A DNA stretch of 64,000 bases from an uncultured bacterium (GTDB lineage Bacteria > Patescibacteriota > Minisyncoccia > UBA6257 > GWB1-50-10). A program made the translations under genes and the position numbers. Below, one piece after another: positions 8,712-38,979 of the stretch (positions are counted from its first letter, which is position 1; every line of letters begins with the position of its first letter). The notes under the pieces are model-generated. The model saw nothing but the letters and a program-made list of their open reading frames with translations. It made no database searches and was not told where the DNA came from. The stretch spans positions 208,223 to 272,222 of the forward strand of contig CAVYJB010000002.1 in NCBI GenBank assembly GCA_963768835.1, read 5' to 3'.

Positions 8712-9630
8712 TTTTAAAGATAACATTCCGGAACCGTTCACAGGTCCTGCGACAGTTCCCGATTCGGAGGCAGAGCGACACATGCTCCAGGAAGCCAATC
8801 GAAGTTTCTGGGAGAAACACCCAATGCGTTATGACTGGAAGGAGCGTGTTGCCTATCCCGAATTCAGCCGAAAGTTCTTTGAGGAGATTGATCGACGTTT
8901 CTTTGAGGACTCGCGCGAGTACGCGCCATGGAGGGAGGTTCCATTCGAACGATTTATCGATTTCGCGGCACTCCCTCACATGGATGTTCTCGAGATTGGG
9001 GTCGGGAATGGGAGCCACGCGGGGCTTCTCGCCGCGCGCGCGAAGTCTTTTACCGGTATCGATCTTACTGGCTACTCCGTGCGGGCCGTCACGGAGCGGT
9101 TCAAGGTTTTCGGTCTGCGCGGGAAGATTCTTCAGATGGACGCCGAAAGGTTGGAATTCCCGGATGCGAGCTTCGATTTTGTCTGGAGCTGGGGCGTCAT
9201 TCACCATTCCTCGAACACGCCCCGGATTCTCCGGGAAATCCGCCGCGTGCTTCGGCCAGGCGGCACCGCCGCTATCATGGTTTATCACCGCGGATGGTGG
9301 AACTACTATGTGGTTGGGTTCCTCCGAGGCATTGTATCAGGGACGCTCTTGCAGACGAGGTCGCTTCACACGAGCATCCAGCTCCAGACTGACGGTGCCA
9401 TTGCGCGTTACTACTCGAAGCGTGACTGGCGGGCGCTCGCGCAATCAATAGGTTTTGGGTGTCGGCAGACAGGCATTTTCGGTCCTAAATCCGATGTGCT
9501 ACCACTTCCAGCTAGCGCTTTTAAGAACGTATTGCGGAGGGTTCTACCAGACTTCTTCTCGCGCTTTCTTACACACACCCTTAGCATGGGAGGCTTTCTT
9601 GTATCCGAGCTCTCCACCCCTCTTCGCTAA
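8704..9630 (+). CDS. Class I SAM-dependent methyltransferase (Methyltransf_11-like)
   Basis: Motif I 'VLEIGVGNGSHAG' and post-motif 'DASFDFVWSWGVIHH'. Paralogous to 28041..28823. Confidence 0.65.
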   Translation: MNSFKDNIPEPFTGPATVPDSEAERHMLQEANRSFWEKHPMRYDWKERVAYPEFSRKFFEEIDRRFFEDSREYAPWREVPFERFIDFAALPHMDVLEIGVGNGSHAGLLAARAKSFTGIDLTGYSVRAVTERFKVFGLRGKILQMDAERLEFPDASFDFVWSWGVIHHSSNTPRILREIRRVLRPGGTAAIMVYHRGWWNYYVVGFLRGIVSGTLLQTRSLHTSIQLQTDGAIARYYSKRDWRALAQSIGFGCRQTGIFGPKSDVLPLPASAFKNVLRRVLPDFFSRFLTHTLSMGGFLVSELSTPLR

Positions 9631-9637
9631 CCATTCC

Positions 9638-10573
9638 ATGACAATCGCGAGAAAAAAACGGAGCGTTCGTGAGGCAATTCGAGATACATTCGTGAAGACG
9701 GTGCGGTTTTTGCAGCGGGGGCACGGGTGGGGGCGGTTCAAGATCGTCAACATCCTATGGAACTTCGGTTATTCCACCGTAAAGGGTCTAATGAAAAACC
9801 CGAATGGGACCGTACCCGTCGGTCGGTTCCAGATGCGTCTGGATCCGGAGGATTCACTCGGCCTCTCGGTCTTTGGCGTCTACGAGCCCTTCTCGACAGA
9901 AGTGGTAAAACAACGGGTGGAACACGGCCAGGTGGCCGTGGATGTGGGAGCGAACATTGGATACTATACGTTACTGCTAAGCGACCTCGTCGGGACCACT
10001 GGAAAGGTGTTTGCGTTTGAGCCGGACCTGGGCAACTTTTCTATTCTGAAAGGGAACCTCGACGCGAATCATTGCCTGAATGTCATCCCGGAACAGGAAG
10101 CTCTCTCTGACGAAACAGGGAACGGGAAGCTCTACCTAAACCGTGAAAACCGAGGCGATCACCGTATCTTCGCCTCGGAGAAAAAACAGAAATCTGTGGC
10201 CGTGCGGACCGTATGCCTCGACGACTACCTTGAGAGGTTTCAGCAAAGGATTGATTTTGTGAAGATCGACGTTCAGGGCGCCGAGTACCGAGTACTCCGA
10301 GGCATGGAGAAGACGCTTCGCCGGAGCCCGAACGTAAAGATCCTTATGGAATATTGGCCGTACGCGCTGCGGGCAGCTGGTGCGGAGCCCCGCACGACTC
10401 TCGAGTTCCTCTCTCGAATGGGATTCGATTTGTGGAATGCCGACGAGCATCGAAAAGCGCTCATGCCTCTCACTGATCTGAGTGCGTTCCTCGCAGCATT
10501 CCCTCCCGAGAACACTGATTCGGTGAATCTCTTTGCTGCGAAGCGCGAAGCGGGCTCTTTTGTCGCGGTTTGA
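9638..10573 (+). CDS. FkbM-family methyltransferase
   Basis: 'VAVDVGANIGYYTLLL...KVFAFEPD' and 'DFVKIDVQGAEYRVLRGM' are characteristic of the FkbM domain. Start moved to ATG 9638 to avoid overlap with the upstream gene; the track ORF starts at 9455. Confidence 0.65.
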   Translation: MTIARKKRSVREAIRDTFVKTVRFLQRGHGWGRFKIVNILWNFGYSTVKGLMKNPNGTVPVGRFQMRLDPEDSLGLSVFGVYEPFSTEVVKQRVEHGQVAVDVGANIGYYTLLLSDLVGTTGKVFAFEPDLGNFSILKGNLDANHCLNVIPEQEALSDETGNGKLYLNRENRGDHRIFASEKKQKSVAVRTVCLDDYLERFQQRIDFVKIDVQGAEYRVLRGMEKTLRRSPNVKILMEYWPYALRAAGAEPRTTLEFLSRMGFDLWNADEHRKALMPLTDLSAFLAAFPPENTDSVNLFAAKREAGSFVAV

Positions 10574-10604
10574 CGGAGATATCCTTTCTCGCTAGCATAA
10601 CCCT

Positions 10605-11651
10605 ATGAAGTACGCGCTCGTGACCGGCGTGACGGGGCAAGACGGCTCCTATATGGCGGAGCTCCTGCTTTCTAAGGGATACACTGTGTACGGGGTCGTA
10701 CGTCGGTCCTCTGTTTTTAACACCGAGCGCATCGATCATCTTATCCACGACCGGCACGAGAAAGGCGTGAAGTTTTTCCGCCTGCATGCCGACCTCTCCG
10801 ATGCGGGGAGCCTCTACAAAATCATTCGCGAGGTCCAGCCTGACGAGGTATACCATCTCGGGGCACAGTCGCATGTGCGGCTAAGCTTCGATATGCCGGA
10901 GTATACCGCCGATGTCACAGGCGTGGGGACTCTTCGGCTCCTCGAAGCGGTCCGAAACTTCGAGGCCACAAATCCCAGCAAGAAGATCAAGTTCTACCAG
11001 GCTTCGAGCTCCGAGATGTTCGGCTCCTCCCCCCCTCCTCAAAACGAGCGGACCCGTTTCGAACCCCAAAGCCCCTACGGCGTCGCCAAGGTTTTCGCGT
11101 ACCAGTCGACGGTGAACTATCGGCGGGGGTTCCAGATGTTCGCGGTGAACGGTATCCTCTTCAACCATGAATCGCCGCGGCGGGGCGGCACCTTTGTTAC
11201 ACGCAAGATTACTCGTGGGGTCGCCGCCATCGCGGCGGGGAAAATCGAGAAGCTTTTCCTCGGGAACCTCGAGGCCAAGCGCGACTGGGGGTATGCACCG
11301 GAGTTTGTGGAGGCGATGTGGCGGATGCTCCAAGAGCCCGAGCCCGACGACTATGTCGTCGCGACGGGGGAGAGCCACACGGTGCGGGAGTTCGCGGAAC
11401 GGGCATTTGGGCACGCCGGTATGGATCTTATCTGGGATGGCGAAGGTTTGAATGAAAAAGGCATAAACCGGAAGACCGGCCGGATTGTGGTGGAGATCGA
11501 CCCCTCCTACTTCCGTCCCACGGAGGTGGACGATCTTCGTGGGGACGCCTCGAAGGCGCGTGAGCGGCTCGGCTGGAAACCCACCGTCACCTTCGATGAG
11601 CTCGTGCGCATCATGGTGGAGAGTGACCGGGAGGGGACCGGCACTCGATAG
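10605..11651 (+). CDS. gmd: GDP-mannose 4,6-dehydratase
   Basis: N-terminus '[35 protein letters not shown]' plus '[17 protein letters not shown]' (YxxxK) and '[10 protein letters not shown]' are near-canonical Gmd sequence. Confidence 0.85.
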
Positions 11652-11690
11652 GCTGTTCGCATTCCCGCAATCAGTATCACGCATCGAACA

Positions 11691-12896
11691 ATGAAGAAGT
11701 ACCGACTTGCGATCGTCACGTCGCACCCTATTCAGTATCAGATCCCGTTCTTCCGGAAGCTCGCCGCGCACCCCGCGATCGACCTCACGGTCTATTTCTC
11801 GTGGGATTTCGGCATCCGGAAGCCGGAGTTCGATGCCGGTTTCGGACAGAAGATTCAGTGGGACGTCCCGCTCCTCGAAGGATACCACTACAAGTTCCTA
11901 AAGAACCTCTCGTGGAAGCCCTCGACTGCGAGCCTTTGGGGCCAGGTGAACCCCGGTATCCTTCCGGAGCTGCTTCGGAACCGCTACGACGCCGTCTGGG
12001 TCCAGGGCTATCGGTTCCTTACCGATTGGTTCGCATTTTTCGCCGCCAAACTTTCTGGAACCCCCATCTTCTTCCGAGGTGAATCTAATCTTTTAAACCA
12101 GAGTAAGGACTGGAAGAAGCTCCTCATAAAGAAAGCCACCGTCGGGAATCTTTTCAAAATTATCTCAGCGTTCCTTTCGATCGGTACACTGAACCGCGAG
12201 TACTATCTTTCCTACAAGGTCCCACCGGAGCGGATCTTCCTTCTTCCGTTCTCGGTGGACGGTGAGTTTTTCGAGCGAGAACGCGGGCGCTGGTCCACTC
12301 GTGTTGCGGAAACGAGGGCGGAGATTGGAGCCACGAAGGACACCGTGGTCATCCTCTATTCCGGCAAGATATACGGGGACAAAGGACCAGGCGCCCTCGA
12401 CCTTCTGAAGGCATTCGAAAAACTAGGTCCCAACCCCGGGGCAGCATTGCTTTTCGTGGGAGACGGGAAAGACAAACCGACGCTTGAGGCTTATGTGCAG
12501 GAGCATAAGCTATCGCACGTCGCCTTCGTCGGTTTTAAGAACCAGACGGAGCTCTCGAGGTACTACAGTATCACCAATATCATGGTGCTTCCGTCCCATA
12601 CCGAGACCTGGGGGCTCGTCGTGAACGAGCTCATGTACTTCGGAGCCGCCATCATCGCATCCGACCGCGTGGGATCGGCGTACGACCTGGTCCGCGACGG
12701 AGTAAACGGCTATCGATTCCCCGTTGGCGATATTAACGCGCTTCGGCACTGTCTGGAGCGGCTGATCAAGAATCCGACGCTTCGAGCTACCATGGGCACT
12801 GCGTCGCGGGAGATCATCGGTACCTGGGGACTCGACGAGATCGTCGAAGGTGCGCTCAAAGCGCTCGAACAGTTCGGGCGACACAGGCAGAGTTGA
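11691..12896 (+). CDS. Glycosyltransferase family 1 (GT4-type, Glycos_transf_1 domain)
   Basis: C-terminal 'VLPSHTETWGLVVNELMYFGAAIIASDRVGS' resembles the EX7E-type retaining GT-B motif. Confidence 0.6.
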   Translation: MKKYRLAIVTSHPIQYQIPFFRKLAAHPAIDLTVYFSWDFGIRKPEFDAGFGQKIQWDVPLLEGYHYKFLKNLSWKPSTASLWGQVNPGILPELLRNRYDAVWVQGYRFLTDWFAFFAAKLSGTPIFFRGESNLLNQSKDWKKLLIKKATVGNLFKIISAFLSIGTLNREYYLSYKVPPERIFLLPFSVDGEFFERERGRWSTRVAETRAEIGATKDTVVILYSGKIYGDKGPGALDLLKAFEKLGPNPGAALLFVGDGKDKPTLEAYVQEHKLSHVAFVGFKNQTELSRYYSITNIMVLPSHTETWGLVVNELMYFGAAIIASDRVGSAYDLVRDGVNGYRFPVGDINALRHCLERLIKNPTLRATMGTASREIIGTWGLDEIVEGALKALEQFGRHRQS

Positions 12897-12931
12897 CGCT
12901 CCGCGCCTTTGGACGCTAGAATTGTTAAACA

Positions 12932-13831
12932 ATGGCTACTTTGGAGGGTAGGGTGGTGCTTATCACCGGCGGCACCGGAAGCCTAGGCCGCGAACTTACA
13001 AAGAAGATACTCCCTCTTGCGAAAGAGGTACGGATCTTCTCGCGCGACGAGGATCGACAGGTAGCGATGCGCAGGAAATTCCTAACGTGCCGCTACATTT
13101 TGGGCGACATTAAGGATTATTTTTCTATTCGGGATGCAGTACGTAACGTCGATGTCGTCATTCATACTGCCGCCTTTAAACATATCGATCTTGGTGAGGA
13201 GCAGCCGACCGAGTGTGTGGAAATCAACGTGGTAGGCTCCCTGAATGTTATCCGCGCCTCCAAGGAAGAAGGCGTTGGAATGGTTGTGGGCATCTCGACG
13301 GATAAGGTGACCCATCCTCAGAGTGTCTACGGATGCTCGAAGCACATCATGGAAAAGCTCTTTGCGGAAGCGGGGCGATCCGGTGCGAAGACAAAATTCA
13401 TCGTTTGCCGCTTCGGGAATCTTATTGGGAGCGCCGGCTCTGTCATCCCGCACTGGATCAAGCTTGCGGAGCAGGGGAAAGACTTGATGGTTACGAACCG
13501 CAGCATGACACGCATCTTTATCTCTCTTCCGGACGCCGCAAACCTCATTCTTGAAGCCATTCAACAGGAGAAGCCTTTCGTATTCAAGCAGACAAAAGCC
13601 GCGAAGATGTGGCGCGTCGCGGAGATCATCGCCGATGGTCGGGTGAAGGTTGTGGAGGGTAAACCACGTCCTGGTGAAAAAATCCACGAAGACCTCATCG
13701 CAGATTACGAAAGCTACAACGGCGGGAAACCTTTCGGTTCACAGAATGCGGAGCTTATGACGGACACCGAGATCCGCGGGATGGTAGAAATGGCGAAAAT
13801 CTCGAACGGCCAGAAGGTGGAGGTCTCATAA
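12932..13831 (+). CDS. Polysacc_synt_2 (CapD/PseB-like) nucleotide-sugar 4,6-dehydratase/epimerase, short form
   Basis: 'VLITGGTGSLGRELTKKIL...RIFSRDEDRQ' matches PseB/CapD 'TGGTGSFGK...SRDE.KQ'. Confidence 0.6.
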   Translation: MATLEGRVVLITGGTGSLGRELTKKILPLAKEVRIFSRDEDRQVAMRRKFLTCRYILGDIKDYFSIRDAVRNVDVVIHTAAFKHIDLGEEQPTECVEINVVGSLNVIRASKEEGVGMVVGISTDKVTHPQSVYGCSKHIMEKLFAEAGRSGAKTKFIVCRFGNLIGSAGSVIPHWIKLAEQGKDLMVTNRSMTRIFISLPDAANLILEAIQQEKPFVFKQTKAAKMWRVAEIIADGRVKVVEGKPRPGEKIHEDLIADYESYNGGKPFGSQNAELMTDTEIRGMVEMAKISNGQKVEVS

Positions 13832-13839
13832 CTATTCCC

Positions 13840-14916
13840 TTGCCGACACCCGCCCTGAACCTCCTCTTCGTCGGCGACCTGAACGAAGAAGGCCGGAGCT
13901 TCCAGCGTTACCGCACGTTTCAGGATCTTGGACTCTGCGTCCGGGGTATTTCGTTTGTCCCAGTGCGTACAGACGGGAAGGATCCTTATCACATCTCGTA
14001 CCTTGCTCGTCTCTGCTCGAAAATTGGGTTCCCGCCGGACCTCACAGGCGCGAACCAAGCCATCCGTGACGCGCTGCAAAGGGGCTCCTTCGACGTCGTG
14101 TGGATTGAGAAAGGGAATGCGGTGCGCCCTTCGACGCTACGCTTCGTCCGCACGCAGCATCCTTGCCCGGTACTCGTCTCTTGTTCGGAGGACGACATGT
14201 ATGCGCGGCATAACCACTCCCTTTATTACCGATGGGGGCTCAAGTATTACGACGTCATTTTTACAACAAAAACATACAACCTTACTGAGCTCCCACGGTG
14301 GGGCGCGCAGCGAGTGGAACTATTCCTCGACGCGTATGATGAGAAGATACATCGCCCGTTGGAGCTTACCCCAGAGGATCGAGCAATGTACGGAGCGGAG
14401 GTCGGTTTCGTAGGGACCTTTGAACGCGATCGGGCTGAGACAATGCTCTATCTTGCGGAGCACAACATTCCCGTCGTGGTATGGGGAGATGGTTGGGGGG
14501 CATGGGCAGGGCGGCATCCGAACCTCACTATCCGCGCCCGCGCTGTCTACGGTGACGAATACGTGAAGGCGATTATAGCCACAAAAGTGAATCTCTGCTT
14601 CCTTCGGAAGGTGAACCGCGATGAAACCACGAGCCGAACAGTGGAGATTCCCGCATGTGGCGGTTTCATGGCCGCGGAACGGACAACCCGCCACCTCGAG
14701 TTCTTCGAAGAGGGGAAAGAGGCTGTATTTTTCGGTTCGCGAGAAGAACTTCTGGACCTCGTGCGGCGGTATCTTCCAGACGGGACGGGACGGGCACGTA
14801 TCGCCGTAGCGGGGCTTACTCGCTGTCTTCGGAGCGGCTATAGCCACCGAGCCCAGCTCACCAAAATGCTTTCGTTGACCCGCGGAGTCCCGGTTGCTAG
14901 GATGGAAAAGCAGTGA
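13840..14916 (+). CDS. CgeB-like protein (DUF3880 + Glyco_trans_1_2-like C-terminus), putative glycosyltransferase
   Basis: C-terminal 'RTVEIPACGGFMAAERT...FFEEGKEAVFF' resembles the CgeB / Glyco_trans_1_2 family. Recognition is weak. Confidence 0.4.
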   Translation: MPTPALNLLFVGDLNEEGRSFQRYRTFQDLGLCVRGISFVPVRTDGKDPYHISYLARLCSKIGFPPDLTGANQAIRDALQRGSFDVVWIEKGNAVRPSTLRFVRTQHPCPVLVSCSEDDMYARHNHSLYYRWGLKYYDVIFTTKTYNLTELPRWGAQRVELFLDAYDEKIHRPLELTPEDRAMYGAEVGFVGTFERDRAETMLYLAEHNIPVVVWGDGWGAWAGRHPNLTIRARAVYGDEYVKAIIATKVNLCFLRKVNRDETTSRTVEIPACGGFMAAERTTRHLEFFEEGKEAVFFGSREELLDLVRRYLPDGTGRARIAVAGLTRCLRSGYSHRAQLTKMLSLTRGVPVARMEKQ

Positions 14917-15032
14917 GCCTTATGCTGTGTTTAACACGCCATCCTGCGAAAAGCTCTCTCTCGGTATTTCCGGAGAAAAACCCTCGGAGAAAGTAAGTAG
15001 CTGTTTAGCAATAAATAGAGAAAAACAATAGC

Positions 15033-15929
15033 ATGTTGCCGAAACTAAGATTACTTTTTCATATTATAAGATCCACAAAAAACTGGATTTATGTAGCGAT
15101 TTCTCGTCTGAGAAATAAAAATTTCACTGCCCATTTCCGGAATGGCAAAACGATGAACGTGAACGCTGGAACGTGGTCGGATTACGCTAGCTACGTCTAC
15201 CTTTTTTCTTTAATAAATGGCGCAAAGATTGAGGGCGACATCCTCGAGTTTGTCTATGGGAAGCCATTGAAATTCACGTTCGGCAAGTGGGGATTTGGAA
15301 CGATCGCGGAGGTGTTTGGGAAGGATGAGTATAAAAAGGTATTCAATGTCAGAGGCAAGGTTGTTGTCGATGTCGGCGCAGCATTTGGAGACACAGCGAT
15401 ATATTTTTTAATGAACGGGGCAAAATACGTCCACGCATTTGAACCCATGCCTGGGTATTTCCGACTCGCTGAATCTAACATCCGACTGAATAAGCTTACG
15501 GAAAAATGTAATGTATCGCTTACTGCAGTGGGGGGGTTGCCAGGGAGTTTGCGTATCAACCCTGATTCTGACAATATGTTCGGCAAAGATCAGCAAGTGC
15601 CATCAAAAGGGAAGGTGAAAGAGGAAGTGGTGCCCGTGGTTACTCTCCAGCACATTGTCGAACAGCGCGGCATTCAGGACGGTTGTCTGAAGATAGACAC
15701 CGAGGGATTTGAGTATGAAATCATTCAGAACACGCCGCCAGAGATTCTACGAAAATTCTCCGACATATTTATTGAGTACCATTATGGATATGAAGGCATA
15801 GAGCCATATTTACGGAACGCTGGATTTAAGGTTTTTCACACAAAACCGATATATCACTATATGCCGGTATACAAGGAAGAAGCCGCCAAAACCATGTTCG
15901 TTGGATATGTGATAGCAAAAAGGCAATGA
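15033..15929 (+). CDS. FkbM-family methyltransferase, in a low-GC islet
   Basis: 'VVVDVGAAFGDTAIYF...YVHAFEP' and 'CLKIDTEGFEYEI'. The gene and its flanks are conspicuously AT-rich compared with neighbouring genes. Confidence 0.6.
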   Translation: MLPKLRLLFHIIRSTKNWIYVAISRLRNKNFTAHFRNGKTMNVNAGTWSDYASYVYLFSLINGAKIEGDILEFVYGKPLKFTFGKWGFGTIAEVFGKDEYKKVFNVRGKVVVDVGAAFGDTAIYFLMNGAKYVHAFEPMPGYFRLAESNIRLNKLTEKCNVSLTAVGGLPGSLRINPDSDNMFGKDQQVPSKGKVKEEVVPVVTLQHIVEQRGIQDGCLKIDTEGFEYEIIQNTPPEILRKFSDIFIEYHYGYEGIEPYLRNAGFKVFHTKPIYHYMPVYKEEAAKTMFVGYVIAKRQ

Positions 15930-16056
15930 GGGAGCGGAAGCGGTACTAAGGAAGGGAGGCATTCTAGAAGTAGCTATAGTAAAAAATTCTTGATTAGAAG
16001 ATATTTTCTTCGCAAAAACCTTCTTTCGTCTGATGGAATTACTATAGATTAAATTA

Positions 16057-17028
16057 ATGTCTGAAACCACTAAAACAAGAGATGATAGCATGCTGTTGAG
16101 TATCTGCATTCCCACTTATGATCGCCCTAAGCAGGTGGAACGACTCCTGAGGGAGCTCCCGCCCCAGCTCGTTCCCGGCGTGGAAGTCATAATCCGTGAC
16201 GATAGTTCCAACAACGAAACAGAGCGACTCATAGAGTCCCATCGGGCCGATCCCCGCATCCGATATTTTAGAGGTGAGCGCATGGGCGTTGATCGCGCTA
16301 TATTGTTTTTAGTAAAAGAGGCAAAGGGTGAATACGTTTGGCTTTTCGGTGATGATGAGATGGTCGATGGTGCAGCGGGCTACATCATATCCGTTCTCAA
16401 GCGATTCCCTAAGATTTCCTTTATGTACCTTAATGCCCGCAGTTCTAATTCAGAACAAGCAGCTTTTGATTTTGGAGAAGACAGATTTTTCCTCGACCGC
16501 AACGAGGTTATTGAGAAAATTGGTCATCTCTTAACCTTTATCTCAGCCCTCGTTTTTAAGAGAAGCGAAGCTCTGACTGGCGTTCGTCAGTCCGAAAAAT
16601 ATGCGGATAGCGCACTACTCGATTTTTATTTAGTGCTCCATATCCTGTCAGGTACTGGCCGATTTTACTTTATTAACAAACCCCTGATTATTACGGATCC
16701 CAAAATGCCCGACGAGCCTCTGTGGTATGACAGTTACCGGGTATTTATCGTCAACGTGTCGAACATACTTCACGAGTTTGATGGTAAGTTTCGTAAGGAA
16801 TCCATTAGACGATTATTGAAGGAGCACTTCGGGAGGATTTTGAAAGCGATTCTAGTGTATCGAGTCAAAAGCTACACCCATGATTGGGGGTCAGAATCCA
16901 TAAAAACAGGCAATCTCCTCAGATTCATGTGGAGCTTTCCAGAATTTTGGATGAGCCTACCGTTCCTCATGATGCCGCGGGCTGTCTTAAGACCGGTTTA
17001 TCGGGCGTACAAATCTTTCAAGCGGTAG
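16057..17028 (+). CDS. Glycosyltransferase family 2
   Basis: 'LSICIPTYDRPKQVERLL...VIIRDDSSNNETERL' and a DD motif 'LFGDDEM'. Paralogue of 20216..21208; they share the C-terminal 'WSFPEFW..LPFLMMPRAVL' motif. Confidence 0.6.
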   Translation: MSETTKTRDDSMLLSICIPTYDRPKQVERLLRELPPQLVPGVEVIIRDDSSNNETERLIESHRADPRIRYFRGERMGVDRAILFLVKEAKGEYVWLFGDDEMVDGAAGYIISVLKRFPKISFMYLNARSSNSEQAAFDFGEDRFFLDRNEVIEKIGHLLTFISALVFKRSEALTGVRQSEKYADSALLDFYLVLHILSGTGRFYFINKPLIITDPKMPDEPLWYDSYRVFIVNVSNILHEFDGKFRKESIRRLLKEHFGRILKAILVYRVKSYTHDWGSESIKTGNLLRFMWSFPEFWMSLPFLMMPRAVLRPVYRAYKSFKR

Positions 17029-17039
17029 TTCCAAGACGA

Positions 17040-17897
17040 TCAGTGTTCGCGTTCCACCAAGAAATTTCCTGAACTGAGAGCGAGTACCTCGTCGGGCGTC
17101 ATGGGTTCAAGTTTCTTTTTCTCTTCATTGACGTATCGGAAAGAAAAGCCCATTCGCGCGAGCGAGAGCACGCACTCGCGGGGGTCATCTCCCGCCGCGC
17201 GGACATCGGGCATTGAAAATTCAATGAGCATCGTCAAATTACTGCTGCGAGCGAGCACCTCGGGCATGCCGCGCAGTACCTTTGCCTCAGCTCCCTGCAC
17301 ATCGATTTTGACGAAGTCAACTTTCGAACCCTTCGGGATACATTCGTCAATCTTTACCGTCTTAACCTGGACCGACCTCCGTTCGCCACTTCCTTCTTTG
17401 TAGATTCGGTGATCTCCGGTATTTTCTTCTGAAAGATAAAGTTGCGTTGTTGCGGTAGTGTCCGCGGCTGCAGCGGGGATTACAACGATACGGTCCGACA
17501 TGTCATTTTTGCGAACGTTTTGGTTGAGGACGGAAAGGTTCTCAGGGTCTGGCTCCAAGGCGAATACCTTACCCCGTGGTCCCACGGCGCGCGCTGCCAG
17601 GATGGTGTAGTAGCCGATGTTTGCCCCCACGTCAACGACGATGGCGCCTTGGTGGAGCCGCTCTAGGAAAACACTCGATTCGAACGGTTCCCATGTACCT
17701 TTCAGGATCAAAGCGTCAGCGATGACGTGGTCCTGCGGGTTGAGCTGTATCTGCATTCCCGAAACCGATGCGCTTCGAGGCTTCAGCAAGCGATACAGAA
17801 AGTCGTGGAGCGCGCGGGCAACCGGAGAGCGCGTGATCCAGCTTCCGCGTGTCAACCCGGTCAATGACCGGTAGAGTCGGAACATCGCGCTTTTCAT
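17040..17897 (-). CDS. FkbM-family methyltransferase
   Basis: 'VVDVGANIGYYTILAARAVGPRGKVFALEPD' and 'DFVKIDVQGAEAKVLRGM'. Close paralogue of 9638..10573. Its start overlaps the stop of the upstream minus-strand gene. Confidence 0.65.
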   Translation of the reverse strand: MKSAMFRLYRSLTGLTRGSWITRSPVARALHDFLYRLLKPRSASVSGMQIQLNPQDHVIADALILKGTWEPFESSVFLERLHQGAIVVDVGANIGYYTILAARAVGPRGKVFALEPDPENLSVLNQNVRKNDMSDRIVVIPAAAADTTATTQLYLSEENTGDHRIYKEGSGERRSVQVKTVKIDECIPKGSKVDFVKIDVQGAEAKVLRGMPEVLARSSNLTMLIEFSMPDVRAAGDDPRECVLSLARMGFSFRYVNEEKKKLEPMTPDEVLALSSGNFLVEREH

Positions 17898-18670
17898 AGT
17901 CCTTGGAGCAGCTTTCCTATCACGCCTATAATGACGGCATTCGCGCTAGGGAATGGGTGCCCATAAATGCAATTTTCCACCTCGGAGAACGGAACCTCCT
18001 TCCATTGATTATCAGCCGTCATCCTTTTTAAAAAATAAACGCGGTCGAACAGCTTCCGCCCTTCACGAAACCACCGATCTACATGAGGATTGAACCCCCA
18101 TGGCATCGTAATAATCGCAGTCCCGTTCGGCGCGAGGCATCGTTCGCGAATCGTTACAAGTGTCCGCAAAATCTTTTCGGGATCCCGTGGGGTTTCGTCC
18201 CATCCCACATGCTCGAGCGTTGAAATGCTTACAACAAGATCGTATGGCTTTTCAGGGTGGAACGTAGCTATGTCCTCATGGATAATCCCAAAGCCGGGCT
18301 CGTATTTATCTAGTACCGTGTGGCGATATGCGTTCGAATAATTAAGTAACACGTTCCCGATTTCAAGTATGCGCTCAGCGTGGGAATCGCGGACCAGAGC
18401 TCCGATAATCGAAACCTCTACCGTCCGTTCGTTTTTCCACGAATGGTTGTACGTATGGCGCGTGTAAGAATACGGCTTTCCCTGGAAAGAGAATTTCTTA
18501 GGGGAGGAGAGACGGAAGAATGTATTAAGGAAAAAATCGCGCAATCCGCGGGCAGGCACCGCAATTACTTTTAAAAAAATGCCTCCTACTCCACTTTCCT
18601 GATATCGCAGGCGAACCCTTTCTATTGTTGAGCGAAGCGAGTTTCCCATAATTTCTCTTAAAACTAACAC
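17894..18670 (-). CDS. Hypothetical protein, possibly a degenerate class I methyltransferase fold
   Basis: 'ILEIGNVLLNY' could be a degenerate motif I, and 'DLVVSISTLEHV' resembles the post-motif II region. Weak call. It is co-oriented and overlapping with the downstream FkbM gene. Confidence 0.4.
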   Translation of the reverse strand: MLVLREIMGNSLRSTIERVRLRYQESGVGGIFLKVIAVPARGLRDFFLNTFFRLSSPKKFSFQGKPYSYTRHTYNHSWKNERTVEVSIIGALVRDSHAERILEIGNVLLNYSNAYRHTVLDKYEPGFGIIHEDIATFHPEKPYDLVVSISTLEHVGWDETPRDPEKILRTLVTIRERCLAPNGTAIITMPWGFNPHVDRWFREGRKLFDRVYFLKRMTADNQWKEVPFSEVENCIYGHPFPSANAVIIGVIGKLLQGL

Positions 18671-18808
18671 GGCTGATTTATCTCATCAAGCTCTTGGGTG
18701 GGGTTAGGGTATGATGGGCGATTGGCTCAACTTGAGGAGGTTCGCGTTCGTCCCTCTCCTCTCATCTCATAGACAAAATTCAGCTCATTTGCTATCTTAG
18801 AAAGTATT

Positions 18809-20122
18809 ATGAAAGCTGAGATTTTGCGGGAGATTAAAACTTGCCGCGCGTGCGGATCAAGCAATCTAAAACCGATTTTATCACTCGGGGATCTTTATGT
18901 TTCAGATTTTATGGATGTCAACGATAGCGCCAGCAACGCCAATAAGGTTCCTCTTGAGTTGGTGCTTTGTAGCGTCGCTGATGGAGGTTGCGGTCTCTTA
19001 CAGTCAAGACACACCGTTTCCCACGAAGCGATGTATCGGAATTATTGGTACCGATCCGGCATCAATAAAAGCATGACCGATGAACTAAATGGTATCGCAG
19101 CGAAAGCGGAATCCATCCTACCGCTTAAGTCGGGCGACTTCGTGATCGATATTGGTTCAAACGATGGGACGCTTCTCCGCGCCTACACAGTGGAAGGTCT
19201 CCGGCGGATTGGGTTCGAGCCTGCGCGGAACATCGTCGAGAAATACGGGCGAGAGGGGATTACCGACGTGATTACCGACTTCTTCGGCTACAAGGTATGG
19301 CGGGAGAAATTCGGTAACGCTCGCGCGAAAATCATCACAGCAATCGCGATGTTCTATGATCTGGACGACCCTAACGCTTTCGTGGCAGATCTGGCCAAGT
19401 GCCTAGATGATAATGGTGTCGCGATAATCCAGATGCTTTACCTGCCGTCCTTTTTGAAACGAAACGCATTCGATGGTATTTGCCACGAGCACCTAGAGTA
19501 TTATTCCTTACTTTCCGTAGAAAACCTTTTAAAGCGGCACGGCCTTGAAATAGTTGATGTTGAGATGCGGGAGCACATAAACGAAGGCAGTTTTCGGGTC
19601 TATGCGCGAAAAGTTGGTGGGGCGGGATCTCTGAACGTGGGGCCCGGGGCCAAGGAGCGACTGGAAAGAATGCGTGCCGAAGAACAAAAACTTGGATTGG
19701 GCAGCGAGGAAGTCTATAAGGATTTTGTCCGTCGCATCCTCGCGATTAAAGACAAGACCGTTTCCTTCATAAAAAAAGAAGTTGCGAGCGGGAAGAAGGT
19801 TTATGCCTATGCCGCATCCACTAAAGGCAACACTACCCTGCAATTCTTTGGTCTCGACTCCGGTCTTATAAAAGCTATTGCCGACAGGAATCCGGACAAA
19901 TGGGGCAAGAAGACTATTGGAACCATGATTCCTGTAATCTCCGAGGAGCAATTTCGCAAAGAAAGACCGGACTATACTCTCGTTCTGGCGTGGCACTTTC
20001 TTCCGGAATTTGTGAAGAGAGAATCAGATTATCTGAATAATGGGGGAAAGTTTATAGTTCCTCTCCCAGAATTTAAAATCATCGATAAAACGGTGTTGGC
20101 ATCGGTCTCGCGGAAACCTTGA
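18809..20122 (+). CDS. SAM-dependent sugar C-methyltransferase, TylC3/TcaB9 family (Methyltransf_13/14-like)
   Basis: The N-terminal zinc-ribbon 'CRACGSSNLKPILSLGDLYVSDF' matches the CxxCG...LxLGxxP...F signature of NDP-hexose C3-methyltransferases. A SAM-binding core 'VIDIGSNDGTLL' follows. Start ATG 18809 is preceded by an AT-rich divergent promoter region. Confidence 0.6.
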   Translation: MKAEILREIKTCRACGSSNLKPILSLGDLYVSDFMDVNDSASNANKVPLELVLCSVADGGCGLLQSRHTVSHEAMYRNYWYRSGINKSMTDELNGIAAKAESILPLKSGDFVIDIGSNDGTLLRAYTVEGLRRIGFEPARNIVEKYGREGITDVITDFFGYKVWREKFGNARAKIITAIAMFYDLDDPNAFVADLAKCLDDNGVAIIQMLYLPSFLKRNAFDGICHEHLEYYSLLSVENLLKRHGLEIVDVEMREHINEGSFRVYARKVGGAGSLNVGPGAKERLERMRAEEQKLGLGSEEVYKDFVRRILAIKDKTVSFIKKEVASGKKVYAYAASTKGNTTLQFFGLDSGLIKAIADRNPDKWGKKTIGTMIPVISEEQFRKERPDYTLVLAWHFLPEFVKRESDYLNNGGKFIVPLPEFKIIDKTVLASVSRKP

Positions 20123-20215
20123 TTGTCACACCGGTCGGGCAGAATCATCGTGTCTGCGGAACAACTGCGACGCATTCTGTCCGCACCCTCCTTACAAGAT
20201 TAACCCAATATCCAC

Positions 20216-21208
20216 GTGAATGATTCTAAGGATAGAAAATTCCTACTTACTGTTGCCATCCCAACCTACAATCGGCCAAGAGAGATCGATCGGCTTCTCC
20301 GTGGTCTTGTCCCGCAAATCACACCAGAAATTGAAGTATATATTCAAGACGATGGCACAAATGACGAGACCCAGGCAGTTGTTTTCAGACATTTTGAAGG
20401 GAAGGAGGGCGGCTTAACCTACGTTCGAGGCAAAAAGCTGGGCGTCGATAATGCCATTCTTCTCACGGTCGAGCATGCACATGGCGGGTATGTTTGGACC
20501 TTCGGCGATGACGACGAGATGGCGGCTGAAGCGCTTGAAAAAGTAACAAGCATTCTCAAGAAGCATCCCAACATCACATTTATTTGGGCTAATTTTCGGG
20601 CGGCTTACATGGATAAGCCCGTTATCGATCTTGGTGGCGACAAGTTTTTCAAAGACCGTAACGAGGTCCTAACCGACGTCAATAACAGGATTGGCCTGCT
20701 ATCCACCCTGATCTTTAAAAAAAGCGAGGCTATGTCTGCCATGCCGTTAGCTCGGAAGAATGTCGGTTCCTGGTGGTCACTTATCATGCTGGTACTGGAG
20801 GTTCTTTCAAAAGACGGGAAGTTCTATTTTCTGCAAGGCCCGTATGTAACCGCCCATCCGACACCCCCGGCCGAGCTTAAGGCGTATGGTTTCCACGACC
20901 TCGGTTTCCAGGGCTTCGCTGTCAATTTCTACAAAATTTTCGGACCCTTCCGCAAGAAATTTGATCGTAGGGCGATCAGAAGAGTTCTAAAGTTGAACTT
21001 TGGCAGTGCTTGGCGCGGTGTTATCATGGGGGAGTTGCGAGGATCAGAAACTACTCGTGGTAAGGTGGGTCAGATGATCAAGCTTTACTGGAGTTATCCG
21101 GAATGCTGGATTGCTGCGCCACTCTTCTTAATGCCGAGACCCGTGCTCGCAATTCTCTACAAGCTTTATAAAAAGGTGATCCGGCACGGATACCGGGAAG
21201 GCAATTAA
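20216..21208 (+). CDS. Glycosyltransferase family 2 (paralogue of 16057..17028)
   Basis: 'LTVAIPTYNRPREIDRLL...YIQDDGTNDETQ', DD motif 'FGDDDEM', and C-terminal 'WSYPECWIAAPLFLMPRPVL'. Starts at GTG 20216. Confidence 0.6.
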   Translation: MNDSKDRKFLLTVAIPTYNRPREIDRLLRGLVPQITPEIEVYIQDDGTNDETQAVVFRHFEGKEGGLTYVRGKKLGVDNAILLTVEHAHGGYVWTFGDDDEMAAEALEKVTSILKKHPNITFIWANFRAAYMDKPVIDLGGDKFFKDRNEVLTDVNNRIGLLSTLIFKKSEAMSAMPLARKNVGSWWSLIMLVLEVLSKDGKFYFLQGPYVTAHPTPPAELKAYGFHDLGFQGFAVNFYKIFGPFRKKFDRRAIRRVLKLNFGSAWRGVIMGELRGSETTRGKVGQMIKLYWSYPECWIAAPLFLMPRPVLAILYKLYKKVIRHGYREGN

Positions 21209-21212
21209 CGTT

Positions 21213-21971
21213 ATGGAGGATCTGCTTGTCCGTTTGGTGGGATACATCGCGACGGTGCTCCACGGTGATGCCGCCGTCTTCGACCGGTGGCTTTGGCTTC
21301 GGAAGCATATCTTGCGAGGGCCCCGGCGCACCCTCGACGCTGGGTGCGGTACTGGGGCGTTCGCGATGTACGCCGCAAAAGCAGGGAACGAAGTGGTTGG
21401 TATCTCCTTCCATCCGCGGGAGAACGAGGTGGCTGCGCGGCGGGCGCGTATCCTCGGTCTCACGAATATCCGATTTGTGACAGGTAACTTGGGGGAGCTG
21501 AGCGCTATGCGAGCGGCGCTCGGGTCCTTCGACCAGGTTATCTGTTTCGAGACCATGGAGCACATCATGGACGACCGAAAGTTGCTGCGCGATCTGGCTT
21601 CCATTCTCCGACCCGGCGGAAGACTGCTTCTTACAGTTCCCCACCTTCACTACCATCGAATGCCAGGGGATAGCATCTCGAAAGTGGAGGACGGCCGACA
21701 TGTCCGGTGGGGGTACACACCCGAACAGCTAAGGAAAATGTTTGAAGAGGTGGGGCTCAAGGTGCAGACCACAGAGTATCTCACTGGGTATGCCGTGCAG
21801 CATGCTATTCAAGCGGAACGCGCGGTCTTAAAGGTCTTAGGCCCCCGACTCGCCTGGCTTATTACCTTTCCACTCCGGCTCGGGAGGATTATAGACCCAC
21901 TTCTTATGCGCCTTACCTCCTATCCCGCGTTCACAGTCGGCGTGGTGGGTGAAAAGCCGATTAACGCCTGA
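21213..21971 (+). CDS. Class I SAM-dependent methyltransferase
   Basis: Motif I 'LDAGCGTGAFAMYAAKAGNEVVGIS' and 'GGRLLLTVP'. Confidence 0.6.
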   Translation: MEDLLVRLVGYIATVLHGDAAVFDRWLWLRKHILRGPRRTLDAGCGTGAFAMYAAKAGNEVVGISFHPRENEVAARRARILGLTNIRFVTGNLGELSAMRAALGSFDQVICFETMEHIMDDRKLLRDLASILRPGGRLLLTVPHLHYHRMPGDSISKVEDGRHVRWGYTPEQLRKMFEEVGLKVQTTEYLTGYAVQHAIQAERAVLKVLGPRLAWLITFPLRLGRIIDPLLMRLTSYPAFTVGVVGEKPINA

Positions 21972-22004
21972 TTATCTGGGCTTCGCCCTCAGGAGAAACT
22001 TTTA

Positions 22005-22718
22005 ATGGTGAACTTTGCGAGGAGATACTATCATCGGATTCGACTCACTCTCTGGTCGGTTTTCCATCTGCCAAAGAAATTATTTGTTGCTGATACAAAT
22101 CTGTTTTTTCCTGCATGGAATTGGCAGGTGGCGCTTCTTTGTAAGGTGCCCTCTACGATCATTCAGAACGGGCGCATGACCTATGAGCCCATCGAGCGCG
22201 AACACTTCCTGGGACTTTTGGAAAAGGGAGATATTTTCTTTGATGTGGGGGCAAACATCGGATATTATTCTCTCCTTGCGGCAGGGCACGGGGCCAAAAA
22301 AGTTTTTGCATTTGAAATACTTGATGAGTACGCCTCTATCGCAGAGAAAGCGTTTAAGCTTAACCATATCGATGGAGAGGTCATAAGATGCGGCGTTGGG
22401 AAAGGAGACACTCCCATTTCTTTCAATGATTCTCTCGCTGGCAAATCCGGGCGTACACCTCTCGCGCTTGATGATTTTTCGAAAAAGAGCGGCATGTATC
22501 CCGACGTAATCAAGATGGATATCGAAGGGTTTGAAGGCGAAGCCTTGCAATATGCAACGGAAATATTAAAGAGAAAGCCTTCAATCGACATCTCCGTCCA
22601 TTCAAAGTTTCTTGAAGAAAAAGGAACAAGTGGTGAGGCGGTACTTAGCCTCTTGGCGGGATTTGGGTATCGCGTTCAGTATGAATACGGAGGAACGCAT
22701 TTTATGAAGGCGAAGTAG
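22005..22718 (+). CDS. FkbM-family methyltransferase
   Basis: 'FFDVGANIGYYSLLAAGHGAKKVFAFE' and 'IKMDIEGFEGEAL'. Confidence 0.6.
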   Translation: MVNFARRYYHRIRLTLWSVFHLPKKLFVADTNLFFPAWNWQVALLCKVPSTIIQNGRMTYEPIEREHFLGLLEKGDIFFDVGANIGYYSLLAAGHGAKKVFAFEILDEYASIAEKAFKLNHIDGEVIRCGVGKGDTPISFNDSLAGKSGRTPLALDDFSKKSGMYPDVIKMDIEGFEGEALQYATEILKRKPSIDISVHSKFLEEKGTSGEAVLSLLAGFGYRVQYEYGGTHFMKAK

Positions 22719-31359: not shown

Positions 31360-31365
31360 GTTGGT

Positions 31366-36005: not shown

Positions 36006-36029
36006 GCCCGTGGTATCCTTCCTCTAGAC

Positions 36030-38969: not shown

Positions 38970-38979
38970 AGGTTAAGGG

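Follow-up and report, generated by a model that had tools for sequence, protein, structure and literature searches.

A probable route to a methyl-branched 6-deoxy sugar through Gmd and a TylC3-type C-methyltransferase in the surface-glycan locus of a CPR bacterium

Branched sugars methylated at C3 have been described from several bacterial envelopes: 3-C-methyl-rhamnose (evalose) occurs in the O-antigens of Azorhizobium caulinodans and Burkholderia andropogonis (PMC7203242), and 3-C-methyl-mannose in that of Helicobacter pylori (PMC12961483). For virenose of Coxiella burnetii, a route from GDP-mannose through Gmd (CBU_0689) and a C-methyltransferase (CBU_0691), together with the GMER-like CBU_0688, was proposed in 2012 (PMC3539893). 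That scheme was drawn up in silico, and the pathway was still described in 2026 as not fully characterized (PMC13252051). A first-pass annotation of the DNA studied here, which read the combination of Gmd and a C-methyltransferase as pointing to such a sugar, had called it unexpected in a cell-envelope glycan; the precedents of virenose, 3-C-methyl-rhamnose, and 3-C-methyl-mannose make this an overstatement (PMC3539893, PMC7203242, PMC12961483).

The window, that is, the whole 64-kb stretch of DNA that was analyzed, encodes an FtsZ with 68-77% identity to Patescibacteria/Jorgensenbacteria FtsZ, which places its source among the Patescibacteria (CPR). It also carries a surface-glycan locus of ∼38 kb, running from Wzy_C at 3459 to an initiating Bac_transf gene at 41795. 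The locus comprises ∼11 glycosyltransferases (Bac_transf excluded), two flippases, one B12-radical SAM gene, and ten methyltransferase-fold genes, making the cluster strongly methyltransferase-rich. All genes named in the first-pass annotation are present among the open reading frames of the window where it had placed them. Pfam scans covered the called ORFs minus one of 1746 aa at 55936-61176, and a domain scan identified a zinc-ADH + GFO/IDH/MocA fusion at 31366-33534 (+ strand).

The gene at 10605-11651 (+ strand, 348 aa; PF16363, E = 2e-142) had been read as a GDP-mannose 4,6-dehydratase, Gmd, and this identity is correct: it scores 521.9 bits against the TIGR01472 gmd profile (cutoff 415), and among solved structures the GMDs score far highest (human GMD, 437 bits; E. 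coli GMD, 411 bits; RMD 2pk3, 99 bits). The catalytic motifs SSSE and SPYGVAK (YxxxK) were found, and the GC content of the gene, 60%, is similar to that of housekeeping genes. By family membership, Gmd would convert GDP-D-mannose to GDP-4-keto-6-deoxy-D-mannose and so supply the latter. ManB and ManC are not present in the 64-kb window.

The gene at 18809-20122 (+ strand, 437 aa) encodes a full-length NDP-hexose C-methyltransferase of the TylC3/TcaB9/MtmC type (C-MT), composed of PF08421 (zinc ribbon), PF13489, and PF08484 (Methyltransf_14, E = 9e-44). The motif CRACGSSNLKPILSLGDLYVSDF, which had been quoted in its support, was confirmed in the translation. Its best solved relatives, all aligned over the full length, are MtmC 4rv9 (E = 2.6e-58, 201 bits) and KijD1 5t64 and TcaB9 3ndi (∼138-144 bits), and the orthogroup relatives listed score 604-725 bits. 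These domains and full-length matches bear out the original identification, and the enzyme groups with sugar 3-C-methyltransferases rather than with non-sugar methyltransferases. The zinc cysteines are C12, C15, C54, and C61, and the SAM loop, DIGSNDG, is retained. Mapping of the active site via the TcaB9 H181N and Y222F mutant chains showed that TcaB9 Y76, E224, and H225 are conserved as Y79, E227, and H228, and that H181 and Y222 are replaced by D184 and C225, both replacements being invariant across the orthogroup. Because two of the five mutagenesis-probed TcaB9 residues are replaced, the chemistry may differ in detail.

The C-MT would deprotonate the carbon beside the 4-keto group, with H228/E227 as the catalytic pair, and then transfer a methyl group from SAM. 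By analogy with TcaB9, KijD1, and MtmC, the methylated carbon is most likely C3, and the product would be GDP-3-C-methyl-4-keto-6-deoxyhexose. Methylation at C5 instead, giving a 5-C-methyl (gem-dimethyl) 6-deoxyhexose in the manner of NovU and noviose, strikes us as decidedly improbable. NovU and CloU, C5-methyltransferases, are of the same protein family, C3 and C5 are both acidic positions of a 4-keto sugar, and the two active-site replacements could reposition the substrate. However, the three nearest solved relatives are all C3-methyltransferases, and the C-methyl 6-deoxyhexoses reported to date from envelope glycans are all 3-C-methyl (PMC3539893, PMC7203242, PMC12961483). Because sequence reveals neither which of C3 and C5 is methylated nor the stereochemistry of the product, an assignment to D-evalose in particular is not possible.

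Members of the C-MT orthogroup are tightly related (50-73% identity) and common among Patescibacteria, DPANN, and other archaea. For comparison, 80 loci were picked by similarity to a CPR query, so the sample is not unbiased. Across 78 independent loci, Gmd was the most frequent single neighbor: a Gmd-family gene lay within 10 kb of the C-MT in 45 loci (a canonical Gmd in 29 of these), an Fcl-like gene was present in 24, and one or the other was present in 54 and directly adjacent to the C-MT (≤200 bp) in 35. An NTP-transferase + SDR pair was found in 15 of the 78; apart from it, no sugar-activation family came near the Gmd/Fcl frequency. In a neighbor-joining tree, one sub-clade took in most of the loci with this pair, largely from Bathyarchaeia, and the window C-MT fell in a clade whose members all have a nearby Gmd-family gene. 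In locus L088 (C-MT 68% identical), ManC lies upstream of a series formed by C-MT, Gmd, a Gmd paralog without the catalytic Glu, NUDIX, FkbM, and a homolog of the window gene at 17894-18670; identities to the window are 61% for Gmd, 54% for FkbM, and 45% for the last gene. In locus L087 (C-MT 69% identical), the order is C-MT, Gmd, SDR, and Glu-less Gmd paralog, and the flanks have Wzy_C, TPR-like, Wzx, and GT4 genes in common with the window. Both relatives carry the C-MT, Gmd, and the Gmd paralog as an operon.

With Gmd heading the neighbor frequencies in the 78 loci, its pairing with the C-MT does not look like chance: the C-MT clade is genomically coupled to Gmd. The earlier proposal that the C-MT acts on the Gmd product is thus supported, and comparative genomics backs it more strongly than its author could know. 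The most likely joint product of Gmd and the C-MT is a 6-deoxy sugar with a methyl branch, and we consider it probable that the locus as a whole converts GDP-mannose through Gmd and the C-MT to a branched 6-deoxyhexose in a surface glycan. Counting against this, we know of no enzyme of the orthogroup, nor of any GDP-sugar C-methyltransferase, that has been assayed so far. The distance of 7.2 kb between Gmd and the C-MT, their unlike GC contents, and the lack of a ketoreductase or epimerase/reductase and of ManB/ManC in the 64 kb also count against it.

The locus also encodes a PseB/FlaA1-like short SDR (Polysacc_synt_2) at 12932-13831 (+ strand; PF02719, E = 1e-67). It scores 221 bits against TIGR03589 PseB, under the cutoff of 408, and when aligned to 2gn4 it has STDK, YGCSK, RFGNLIGSAGSVIP, and RPGEKIHE all present. 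With these motifs intact, it most likely represents a second (HexNAc) 4,6-dehydratase. It had been put forward as a candidate for the missing 4-ketoreductase, a role that we reject because the dehydratase motif set is complete and the gene is not a conserved neighbor of the C-MT. As a dehydratase, it would yield a second 4-keto sugar in the same locus, an observation that counts against the proposed pathway.

The C-MT might instead use another NDP-4-keto sugar, either UDP-4-keto-6-deoxy-HexNAc from this enzyme or a dTDP or CDP sugar from elsewhere, with Gmd feeding a branch to GDP-rhamnose or GDP-fucose via a reductase encoded elsewhere; we regard this as rather unlikely. To our knowledge, dTDP sugars are the substrates of all biochemically characterized relatives (TcaB9, KijD1, and MtmC). 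The PseB-like gene lies 5 kb from the C-MT, and Gmd and the C-MT gene differ in GC content (60% versus 48%). In addition, the sub-clade tied to an NTP-transferase and a non-Gmd SDR indicates that nucleotide specificity varies within the orthogroup. Against this, PseB-like homologs were seen in just ∼4 related loci, in none of them next to the C-MT, the window C-MT sits in the Gmd-linked clade, Gmd directly follows the C-MT in both L087 and L088, and domain scans of the window found no RmlA/RmlB or RfbF/RfbG. We give hardly any credence to a GDP-heptose derivative (GDP-6-deoxy-4-keto-heptose) as the substrate in place of a hexose. Of the 78 related loci, 16 carry heptose-pathway genes (GmhA, HddA, HddC-like), and a GT9 (heptosyltransferase-family) gene lies at 7413 in the glycan locus, but domain scans and tblastn found no GmhA, HddA, or HddC in the window, and the score of its Gmd, 437 bits against human GMD, drops to 106 against the structure of a GDP-heptose 4,6-dehydratase (7us5).

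As for the reduction step, searches of the 64 kb with Pfam (called ORFs) and tblastn (whole window, queried with Fcl-like and Gmd-paralog representatives) turned up neither GMER/Fcl nor Rmd, nor a second Gmd-like gene, a DegT aminotransferase, or a sugar nucleotidyltransferase. This agrees with the first-pass annotation and leaves no nearby fcl/rmd alternative. Related loci usually pair the C-MT with an Fcl-like SDR or with a Gmd paralog that is Glu-less; the window has neither. The Fcl-like SDRs score 233 bits to NF047922; the single Glu-less paralog tested, from L088, scores 292 bits to GMD versus 113 to Rmd and, being far nearer GMD, is not an Rmd ortholog. In related loci, reduction would most plausibly fall to the Gmd-derived paralog without the dehydratase glutamate or to an Fcl-like epimerase/reductase. 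For the window, the source must be one of three: a gene that lies elsewhere in the genome, a Gmd that is bifunctional, or an MtmC-like ketoreductase activity of the C-MT. Sixteen further related loci likewise contain just one Gmd-family gene, with no candidate for a separate reductase. Once reduced, the branched 6-deoxyhexose would be transferred by an adjacent GT2 or GT1_2 enzyme, and further O-methylation would probably be carried out by co-traveling FkbM-type and class I methyltransferases.

Candidates for these roles surround the C-MT. The FkbM-family gene at 15033-15929 (+ strand; PF05050, GC 44%), for which L010, L004, and L088 have homologs (45-54% identity) on the flanks of the C-MT, belongs to the same mobile module, as does that at 22005-22718 (+ strand; PF05050, GC 46%), which has a 47% identical homolog directly upstream of the C-MT in L010. 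The Glyco_trans_1_2 gene at 13840-14916 (+ strand; PF13524) recurs with the C-MT in eight related loci (nine with the window), with 46% identity to L019 and, in the part aligned by tblastx, 62% to L088. GT2 cluster 7, found in 10 related loci (11 with the window), includes both the candidate transferase of the module at 16057-17028 (+ strand; PF00535; 36% identity to the GT2 of L088 in the part aligned by tblastx) and the gene directly downstream of the C-MT at 20216-21208 (+ strand; PF00535), whose homologs adjoin the C-MT in L019, L087, and L088. The gene at 17894-18670 (− strand; start at 18649 in the public record, 251 aa) encodes a class I SAM-methyltransferase-fold protein of an uncharacterized family, divergent from the C-MT. 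It has just a weak PF13489 match, and the top fold matches of its AF2 model (pLDDT 92.9) are all SAM methyltransferases (NodS, ToxA, and TehB). Homologs are present in 14 of the 78 loci (15 with the window), where their median distance to the C-MT is 180 bp, and the family is also found outside glycan loci.

The C-MT cassette (about 15-23 kb) has a GC content of 44-48%, versus 57-60% in Gmd and the housekeeping genes, and appears to have been acquired horizontally and then plugged into the resident Gmd. It is very improbable that this cassette is a recently transferred, nonworking remnant whose reductase partner was lost, so that the organism makes no C-methyl sugar. Its foreign GC and the missing Gmd paralog and Fcl-like partner of most relatives fit such a history, yet the C-MT ORF runs uninterrupted over its full length and keeps all invariant residues of the orthogroup, an identical copy was recovered from an independent Logan assembly, and the 16 loci mentioned above also have no separate reductase candidate. 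The B12-binding radical SAM protein at 5622-7397 (+ strand; PF02310 + PF04055, CPFKCSYC at residue 168), once suggested as a second C-methylation enzyme, shows no link to the C-MT module: it matches no curated NCBIfam subfamily (best 66 bits versus cutoffs of 250-750), and its one weak homolog occurs in 1 of the 78 loci. Of the initial interpretation, Gmd, the C-MT, and the lack of Fcl/Rmd in the window stand and the use of the Gmd product is supported, while the SDR as reductase, the B12-radical SAM role, and the unexpectedness in an envelope glycan are not.

Compared with MtmC (the mithramycin enzyme, PDB 4rv9), TcaB9, and KijD1, which are actinomycete dTDP-hexose 3-C-methyltransferases, the window C-MT shares the three-domain architecture (zinc ribbon, SAM Rossmann, and C-terminal Methyltransf_14), the four zinc cysteines, the SAM loop, and the catalytic Tyr/Glu/His. 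It differs in forming a separate clade, in its second zinc knuckle (CX6C versus CX2C), in its genomic partner (Gmd, a GDP-sugar enzyme, versus RmlA/RmlB), and in its setting (a surface-glycan locus versus an antibiotic cluster). Gmd pathways are normally finished by Rmd (GDP-6-deoxy-D-lyxo-4-hexulose reductase, 2pk3) or GMER/Fcl, neither of which was found in the window and whose place in related loci is filled by Fcl-like SDRs or Gmd paralogs without the catalytic Glu. The Coxiella scheme follows the same logic as that proposed here, from GDP-mannose through Gmd and 4-keto C-methylation to an envelope glycan (PMC3539893), but has a GMER-like gene next door, which the window does not. CBU_0691, set beside the window C-MT by description only, is reported to be 42-44% identical to TylCIII, EryBIII, and AviG1 and is thus close to the actinomycete type. 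A methyl-branched 6-deoxy sugar is a rare but previously known type of cell-surface sugar, and this C-MT orthogroup is uncharacterized. In Azorhizobium, Burkholderia, and Helicobacter, all proteobacteria, C3-methyl-branched manno-configured (6-deoxy)hexoses are known as chemical structures, whereas the present case, in a CPR bacterium, is a set of genes.

The enzyme encoded at 18809-20122 (plus strand, 437 aa) carries three Pfam domains that all exceed their gathering scores, PF08421 (E 5e-10, residues 12-76), PF13489 (E 4e-16, residues 103-250) and PF08484 (E 9e-44, residues 259-420), giving the architecture of a zinc-binding domain, a class I SAM domain and Methyltransf_14. It aligned end to end with the solved enzymes MtmC (4rv9; E 2.6e-58 over residues 7-425), KijD1 (5.5e-41) and TcaB9 (2.6e-39), and a profile of its orthogroup, the close relatives common in Patescibacteria, DPANN and archaea, matched solved members of the family down to E 5e-71. 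The N-terminal motif quoted in the first-pass annotation was confirmed in the translation, as were the SAM loop DIGSNDG and the zinc cysteines C12, C15, C54 and C61; the last three are invariant in the orthogroup and C12 is at least 90% conserved, with the second pair spaced CX6C and not CX2C. Architecture, motif and alignments together bear out the TylC3/TcaB9-type identity originally proposed for this gene.

Active-site residues were mapped using the TcaB9 mutant chains H181N (4e2w) and Y222F (4e2x) as anchors, and invariance was judged on a 14-sequence alignment of the orthogroup. TcaB9 Y76, E224 and H225 have their counterparts in Y79, E227 and H228 of the C-methyltransferase, all three invariant; with the PDB mutant entries as a guide, we take H225/E224 to be the catalytic His/Glu pair and Y76 the substrate tyrosine. 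At the positions of TcaB9 H181 and Y222, MtmC and KijD1 retain His and Tyr, whereas the orthogroup has an Asp (D184) and a Cys (C225), again invariant. Its fold and catalytic residues thus clearly mark the protein as a sugar C-methyltransferase, and its D184/C225 signature as a member of a distinct lineage, a placement made relative to the three solved enzymes MtmC, KijD1 and TcaB9 only.

The second component is Gmd, a GDP-mannose 4,6-dehydratase encoded at 10605-11651 (plus strand, 348 aa). It scored 521.9 bits on the curated equivalog TIGR01472, passing the cutoff of 415, and both catalytic motifs, SSSE and SPYGVAK (YxxxK), are there. Against solved structures it reached 437 bits with human GMD, 106 with GDP-heptose 4,6-dehydratase and 99 with RMD. 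By these measures it is a bona fide GDP-mannose 4,6-dehydratase, as the first-pass annotation had it.

Homologues of the C-methyltransferase number in the thousands in the protein database (the best 120 are 61-73% identical), and a scan of one genome per species returned at least 584 loci, the best 80 of which were kept for neighbourhood analysis. Patescibacteria, DPANN, Bathyarchaeia and Nitrososphaeria contributed most of these, and Nitrospira, Acidiferrobacterales and Comamonadaceae a small number. ORFs called in the loci were clustered and representatives of the largest clusters annotated, with counts taken over 78 related loci. The commonest neighbour of the C-methyltransferase was a Gmd-family protein (45/78), which in 29 of the 45 loci was canonical, that is, at least 50% identical to the window's Gmd with the catalytic Glu of the SSE motif retained. 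Second came an Fcl-like SDR (24/78), whose 233 bits fall short of the cutoff set for the GDP-fucose synthase model. In 54 of the 78 loci at least one of these two genes lay within 10 kb of the C-methyltransferase, and in 35 within 200 bp. On a neighbour-joining tree, computed without bootstrap support and with the PDB enzymes as root, the window's enzyme fell in a clade in which every member has a nearby Gmd-family gene. The conserved adjacency to Gmd indirectly supports the predicted SAM-dependent C3-methylation of an NDP-4-keto-6-deoxyhexose; we consider GDP-4-keto-6-deoxymannose the probable substrate, and C3 the likelier site of methylation.

A different partnership was found in 15 related loci, where the C-methyltransferase is accompanied by a 236-aa sugar-1-phosphate nucleotidyltransferase and/or a 322-aa non-Gmd, dehydratase-like SDR (both in 12). 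They include L052, L060-L065, L069 and L073 from Bathyarchaeia, as well as L050, L075 and L083; most form one, largely bathyarchaeial, sub-clade of the orthogroup, with L050 outside it. The 322-aa SDR, which scores under every curated cutoff, stands in for Gmd in most of these loci, so the activating nucleotide probably differs there; L075 and L083 carry a Gmd paralog too.

Two relatives are particularly informative. In L088, whose C-methyltransferase is 68% identical to ours, ManC is followed further along by GT2, C-methyltransferase, Gmd, a Gmd paralog lacking the catalytic Glu, NUDIX, FkbM, a homologue of the 17894-18670 gene and GT2, with identities to the window of 61% for Gmd, 54% for FkbM (to the gene at 15033) and 45% for the 17894-18670 homologue. 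In L087 (C-methyltransferase 69% identical) the order is C-methyltransferase, Gmd, SDR and Glu-less paralog; flanking Wzy_C, TPR-like, Wzx and GT4 genes are common to L087 and the window, and a PG_binding_1 protein also precedes the Wzy_C of L087. By these gene orders, the window contains the same module minus the Gmd paralog, with its Gmd 7.2 kb upstream of the C-methyltransferase and not adjacent to it. L087, a syntenic CPR relative, also encodes two C-methyltransferase paralogs (7530-8765 and 10001-11251) flanking a GT2 gene. The latter shares just 34% identity with the C-methyltransferase of the window and has retained the His and Tyr of TcaB9 (FAHI, IYHEH). The arrangement hints at two distinct C-methylation reactions within a single locus.

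The pathway so assembled lacks an evident 4-ketoreductase. Pfam scans together with tblastn found no Fcl/GMER-like, Rmd-like or second Gmd-like gene, DegT aminotransferase or sugar nucleotidyltransferase in the 64 kb, in agreement with the earlier statement that no fcl, GMER or rmd gene lies near Gmd and the C-methyltransferase. The Pfam scans covered called ORFs across the window except a 1746-aa ORF at 55936-61176 and returned no further SDR; tblastn of the whole 64 kb with the Fcl-like and Gmd-cluster representatives recovered only Gmd itself and, at 27%, the PseB-like SDR at 12932-13831. The window is not unique in this respect, since 16 related loci also offer a single Gmd-family gene and no further candidate for the reduction. 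The 4-ketoreduction may come from a distal gene, from a bifunctional Gmd or from an MtmC-like ketoreductase activity of the C-methyltransferase itself; some GMDs are known to be bifunctional, and the dual activity of MtmC has also been noted (PMC3539893).

Many related loci contain a second, shorter Gmd paralog of 317-339 aa that scores 228-360 bits on TIGR01472, below the cutoff of 415. Examples beside the C-methyltransferase include L005 13373-14347, L019 12308-13282, L076 11218-12192, L088 12322-13284 and L087 13292-14260. In 13 loci the paralog has lost the dehydratase Glu, SSE having become SSL, SSN, SSK or SSR. The L088 member, the sole one compared with solved structures, scored 292 bits against GMD vs 113 bits against RMD, and because it is closer to the former, the Glu-less paralogs look Gmd-derived. 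They are plausibly candidate GDP-4-keto-sugar 4-ketoreductases evolved from a dehydratase, and they appear undescribed.

Two other genes had been put forward as the missing 4-ketoreductase. The CapD-like SDR (12932-13831, plus strand; PF02719, E 1e-67) aligns its STDK and YGCSK (Thr-Asp-Lys, YxxxK) to FlaA1 (2gn4), and its alignment with FlaA1 and PseB also retains the RxGN(V/L)xGSxGSV(I/V)P segment and RPGEKxHE. It falls below equivalog cutoffs (PseB 221 bits vs 407.75; FnlA 168 vs 730), and its C-terminus is divergent and shorter, the last 40 residues failing to align to 2gn4. Since STDK, YGxSK, the RxGN segment and RPGEKxHE are kept, we read the protein as dehydratase-type and not a reductase, and it shows no conserved co-occurrence with the C-methyltransferase. 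Its predicted product would be a second 4-keto sugar, with a 4-keto-6-deoxy-HexNAc expected; no aminotransferase, acetyltransferase or reductase for such a sugar was found anywhere in the 64 kb. The locus would so have a further source of a 4-keto sugar that is left an orphan. The other proposal, the bi-domain oxidoreductase at 31366-33534 (plus strand), may still be a ketoreductase, but nothing supports the idea. It was rejected as a partner of the C-methyltransferase, as a homologue occurs in 1 of 78 related loci and it sits in a separate group with WecC-like and C5-epimerase-like genes.

The 17894-18670 protein, encoded by the divergent neighbour of the C-methyltransferase gene, was likewise considered as the missing reductase. 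In 14 of the 78 loci a homologue lies near the C-methyltransferase, at a median distance of 180 bp. By fold, the high-confidence AF2 model of the protein (pLDDT 92.9) matched only SAM methyltransferases. The family, about 1000 uncharacterised proteins, occurs across bacteria and archaea, both next to C-methyltransferase genes and in settings unrelated to glycans. The glycine loop of the family is degenerate (ILEVGNVL), and NERxVE, DKYE and SISTLEHVGWD are invariant. Judged by the model, this is another methyltransferase, and it was rejected as the reductase. The B12-radical SAM protein (5622-7397, plus strand) had been suggested as a second C-methylating enzyme. It combines an N-terminal B12-binding PF02310 domain with a PF04055 radical SAM core, and has a CxxxCxxC motif (CPFKCSYC, residue 168). 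Its best NCBIfam matches, HpnJ (66 bits vs 578), the diol-dehydratase AprD4 (61 vs 500) and PhpK (60 vs 600), represent mixed chemistry and are all far under their cutoffs, so that there is no curated subfamily match, and a weak homologue occurs in 1 of the 78 loci. Nothing ties this enzyme to the deoxysugar branch.

These genes all lie in one large surface-glycan locus that, from the ORF list and the Pfam and NCBIfam scans, extends from about 3.4 to 41.8 kb of the window. It begins with Wzy_C (3459), a small TPR-like ORF, the B12-binding radical SAM protein (5622), GT9 (7413), Methyltransf_11 (8704), FkbM (9455), Gmd (10605), GT4 (11691), the short Polysacc_synt_2 SDR (12932) and Glyco_trans_1_2 (13840). 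Around the C-methyltransferase (18809) are FkbM (15033), GT2 (16057), FkbM (17040, minus strand), the 258-aa ORF with a weak methyltransferase match (17894, minus strand), GT2 (20216), a class I methyltransferase (21213) and FkbM (22005). There follow GT4 (22742), Wzx (23914), GT4 (25404), Methyltransf_11 (26563), GT2 (27176), Methyltransf_11 (28041), GT4 (28850, minus strand), a WecC-like dehydrogenase (30115), the zinc-ADH/GFO bi-domain oxidoreductase (31366), a C5-epimerase-like protein (33440) and, on the minus strand at 37050-41795, asparagine synthase, a second Wzx and an initiating Bac_transf. Downstream of the locus are the housekeeping genes DsbA, TrxB, Pth, LepB, HisS, FtsA, FtsZ and RNR. 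The FtsZ is 68-77% identical to Patescibacteria/Jorgensenbacteria FtsZ, identifying the host as a CPR bacterium.

Several further features of the window deserve mention. The FkbM ORF as called (TTG start, 9455-10573) overlaps the preceding methyltransferase (8704-9630) by 176 bp, and its true start is therefore probably downstream of 9455; the public record gives 292 aa for the SDR at 12932 and 251 aa for the 17894 protein, with starts that differ from the mechanical ORFs. Ten methyltransferase-fold genes lie within 20 kb (8704-28823) of this small CPR genome, namely four FkbM (plus the FkbM-like ORF at 9455), four Methyltransf_11/23-type, the C-methyltransferase and the 17894 protein, with the B12-radical SAM gene just upstream; this density suggests a surface glycan that is hydrophobic and methylated to an unusual degree. 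The genes at 30115-34492 and 37050-38969 (WecC-like NDP-sugar dehydrogenase, 722-aa zinc-ADH/GFO oxidoreductase, D-glucuronyl C5-epimerase-like protein and asparagine synthase homologue) suggest a modified uronic acid, possibly amidated or epimerised, and no characterised pathway could be matched to the group. Also inside the locus, at 34504-36542, are a CYTH-domain protein, a Q_salvage (queuosine-salvage) protein and a DUF5946 protein, the CYTH and Q_salvage genes being low in GC (45-47%). At 55849-61176 (59-63% GC), the 1746-aa ORF of the plus strand overlaps three long ORFs on the minus strand (535, 338 and 768 aa), none of which matched Pfam.

Base composition bears on the origin of the module. 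The genes at 15033, 16057, 17894, 18809, 20216 and 22005 have a GC content of 44-48% (GC3 48-54%), as against 60% for Gmd, 57-60% for the housekeeping genes and 55-60% for the remainder of the locus taken together with the housekeeping genes. Because of this difference, the data fit horizontal acquisition of the C-methyltransferase cassette and its insertion into a resident glycan locus in which Gmd was already present. The low-GC genes of 15033-22718 are interleaved with genes of 55-58% GC (17040 and 21213), a mosaic suggesting that the acquisition was recent and possibly occurred in several pieces. A promoter/terminator scan of 10-24 kb was uninformative (12 promoter-like sites vs 10.4 expected).

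For the window alone, the outcome is mostly well-supported annotation with little surprise. Of the first-pass reading, the Gmd/C-methyltransferase pair is confirmed and the core interpretation, a GDP-4-keto-6-deoxymannose substrate, is probably right; the CapD-like reductase, the radical SAM role and the claimed unexpectedness are not supported. Three points are new: a well-defined, uncharacterised clade of Gmd-coupled C-methyltransferases marked by D184/C225, the abundance of this clade among CPR, DPANN and archaeal genomes, and its occurrence here in a CPR locus that holds ten genes of methyltransferase fold. Species-level genomes encoding the orthogroup number in the hundreds, and many belong to CPR or DPANN, a breadth implying that C-methylated, heavily O-methylated deoxyhexoses may recur on the hydrophobic surfaces of these organisms. 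A bolder joint reading would make the D184/C225 clade a dedicated GDP-sugar C-methyltransferase lineage and C-branched 6-deoxyhexoses common on ultrasmall episymbionts (CPR, DPANN) and several other archaeal groups; in loci like this one, with Gmd and the C-methyltransferase but no separate reductase, the C-methyltransferase (like MtmC, the solved enzyme closest to it) or Gmd would also perform the 4-ketoreduction, or the glycan would hold an unreduced 3-C-methyl-4-keto sugar. We regard this combination as unlikely.

To our knowledge, no GDP-sugar C-methyltransferase has been characterised. With its large size, sharp conservation and well-defined partners (ManC, Gmd, and the Glu-less Gmd paralog or Fcl-like SDR), the orthogroup lends itself to working out how C-branched sugars are made by the GDP route. 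The same logic of Gmd and a C-methyltransferase, with a GMER-like reductase, was proposed in 2012 for Coxiella virenose (PMC3539893), a medically relevant but hypothetical pathway that a 2026 preprint still describes as incompletely characterised (PMC13252051). A C-methyl 6-deoxyhexose had been deemed unexpected in a cell-envelope glycan; besides Coxiella, precedents are known in the 3-C-methyl-rhamnose of the O-antigens of Azorhizobium caulinodans and Burkholderia andropogonis (PMC7203242) and the 3-C-methyl-mannose of Helicobacter pylori (PMC12961483), and given these cases such a sugar is rare, not new.
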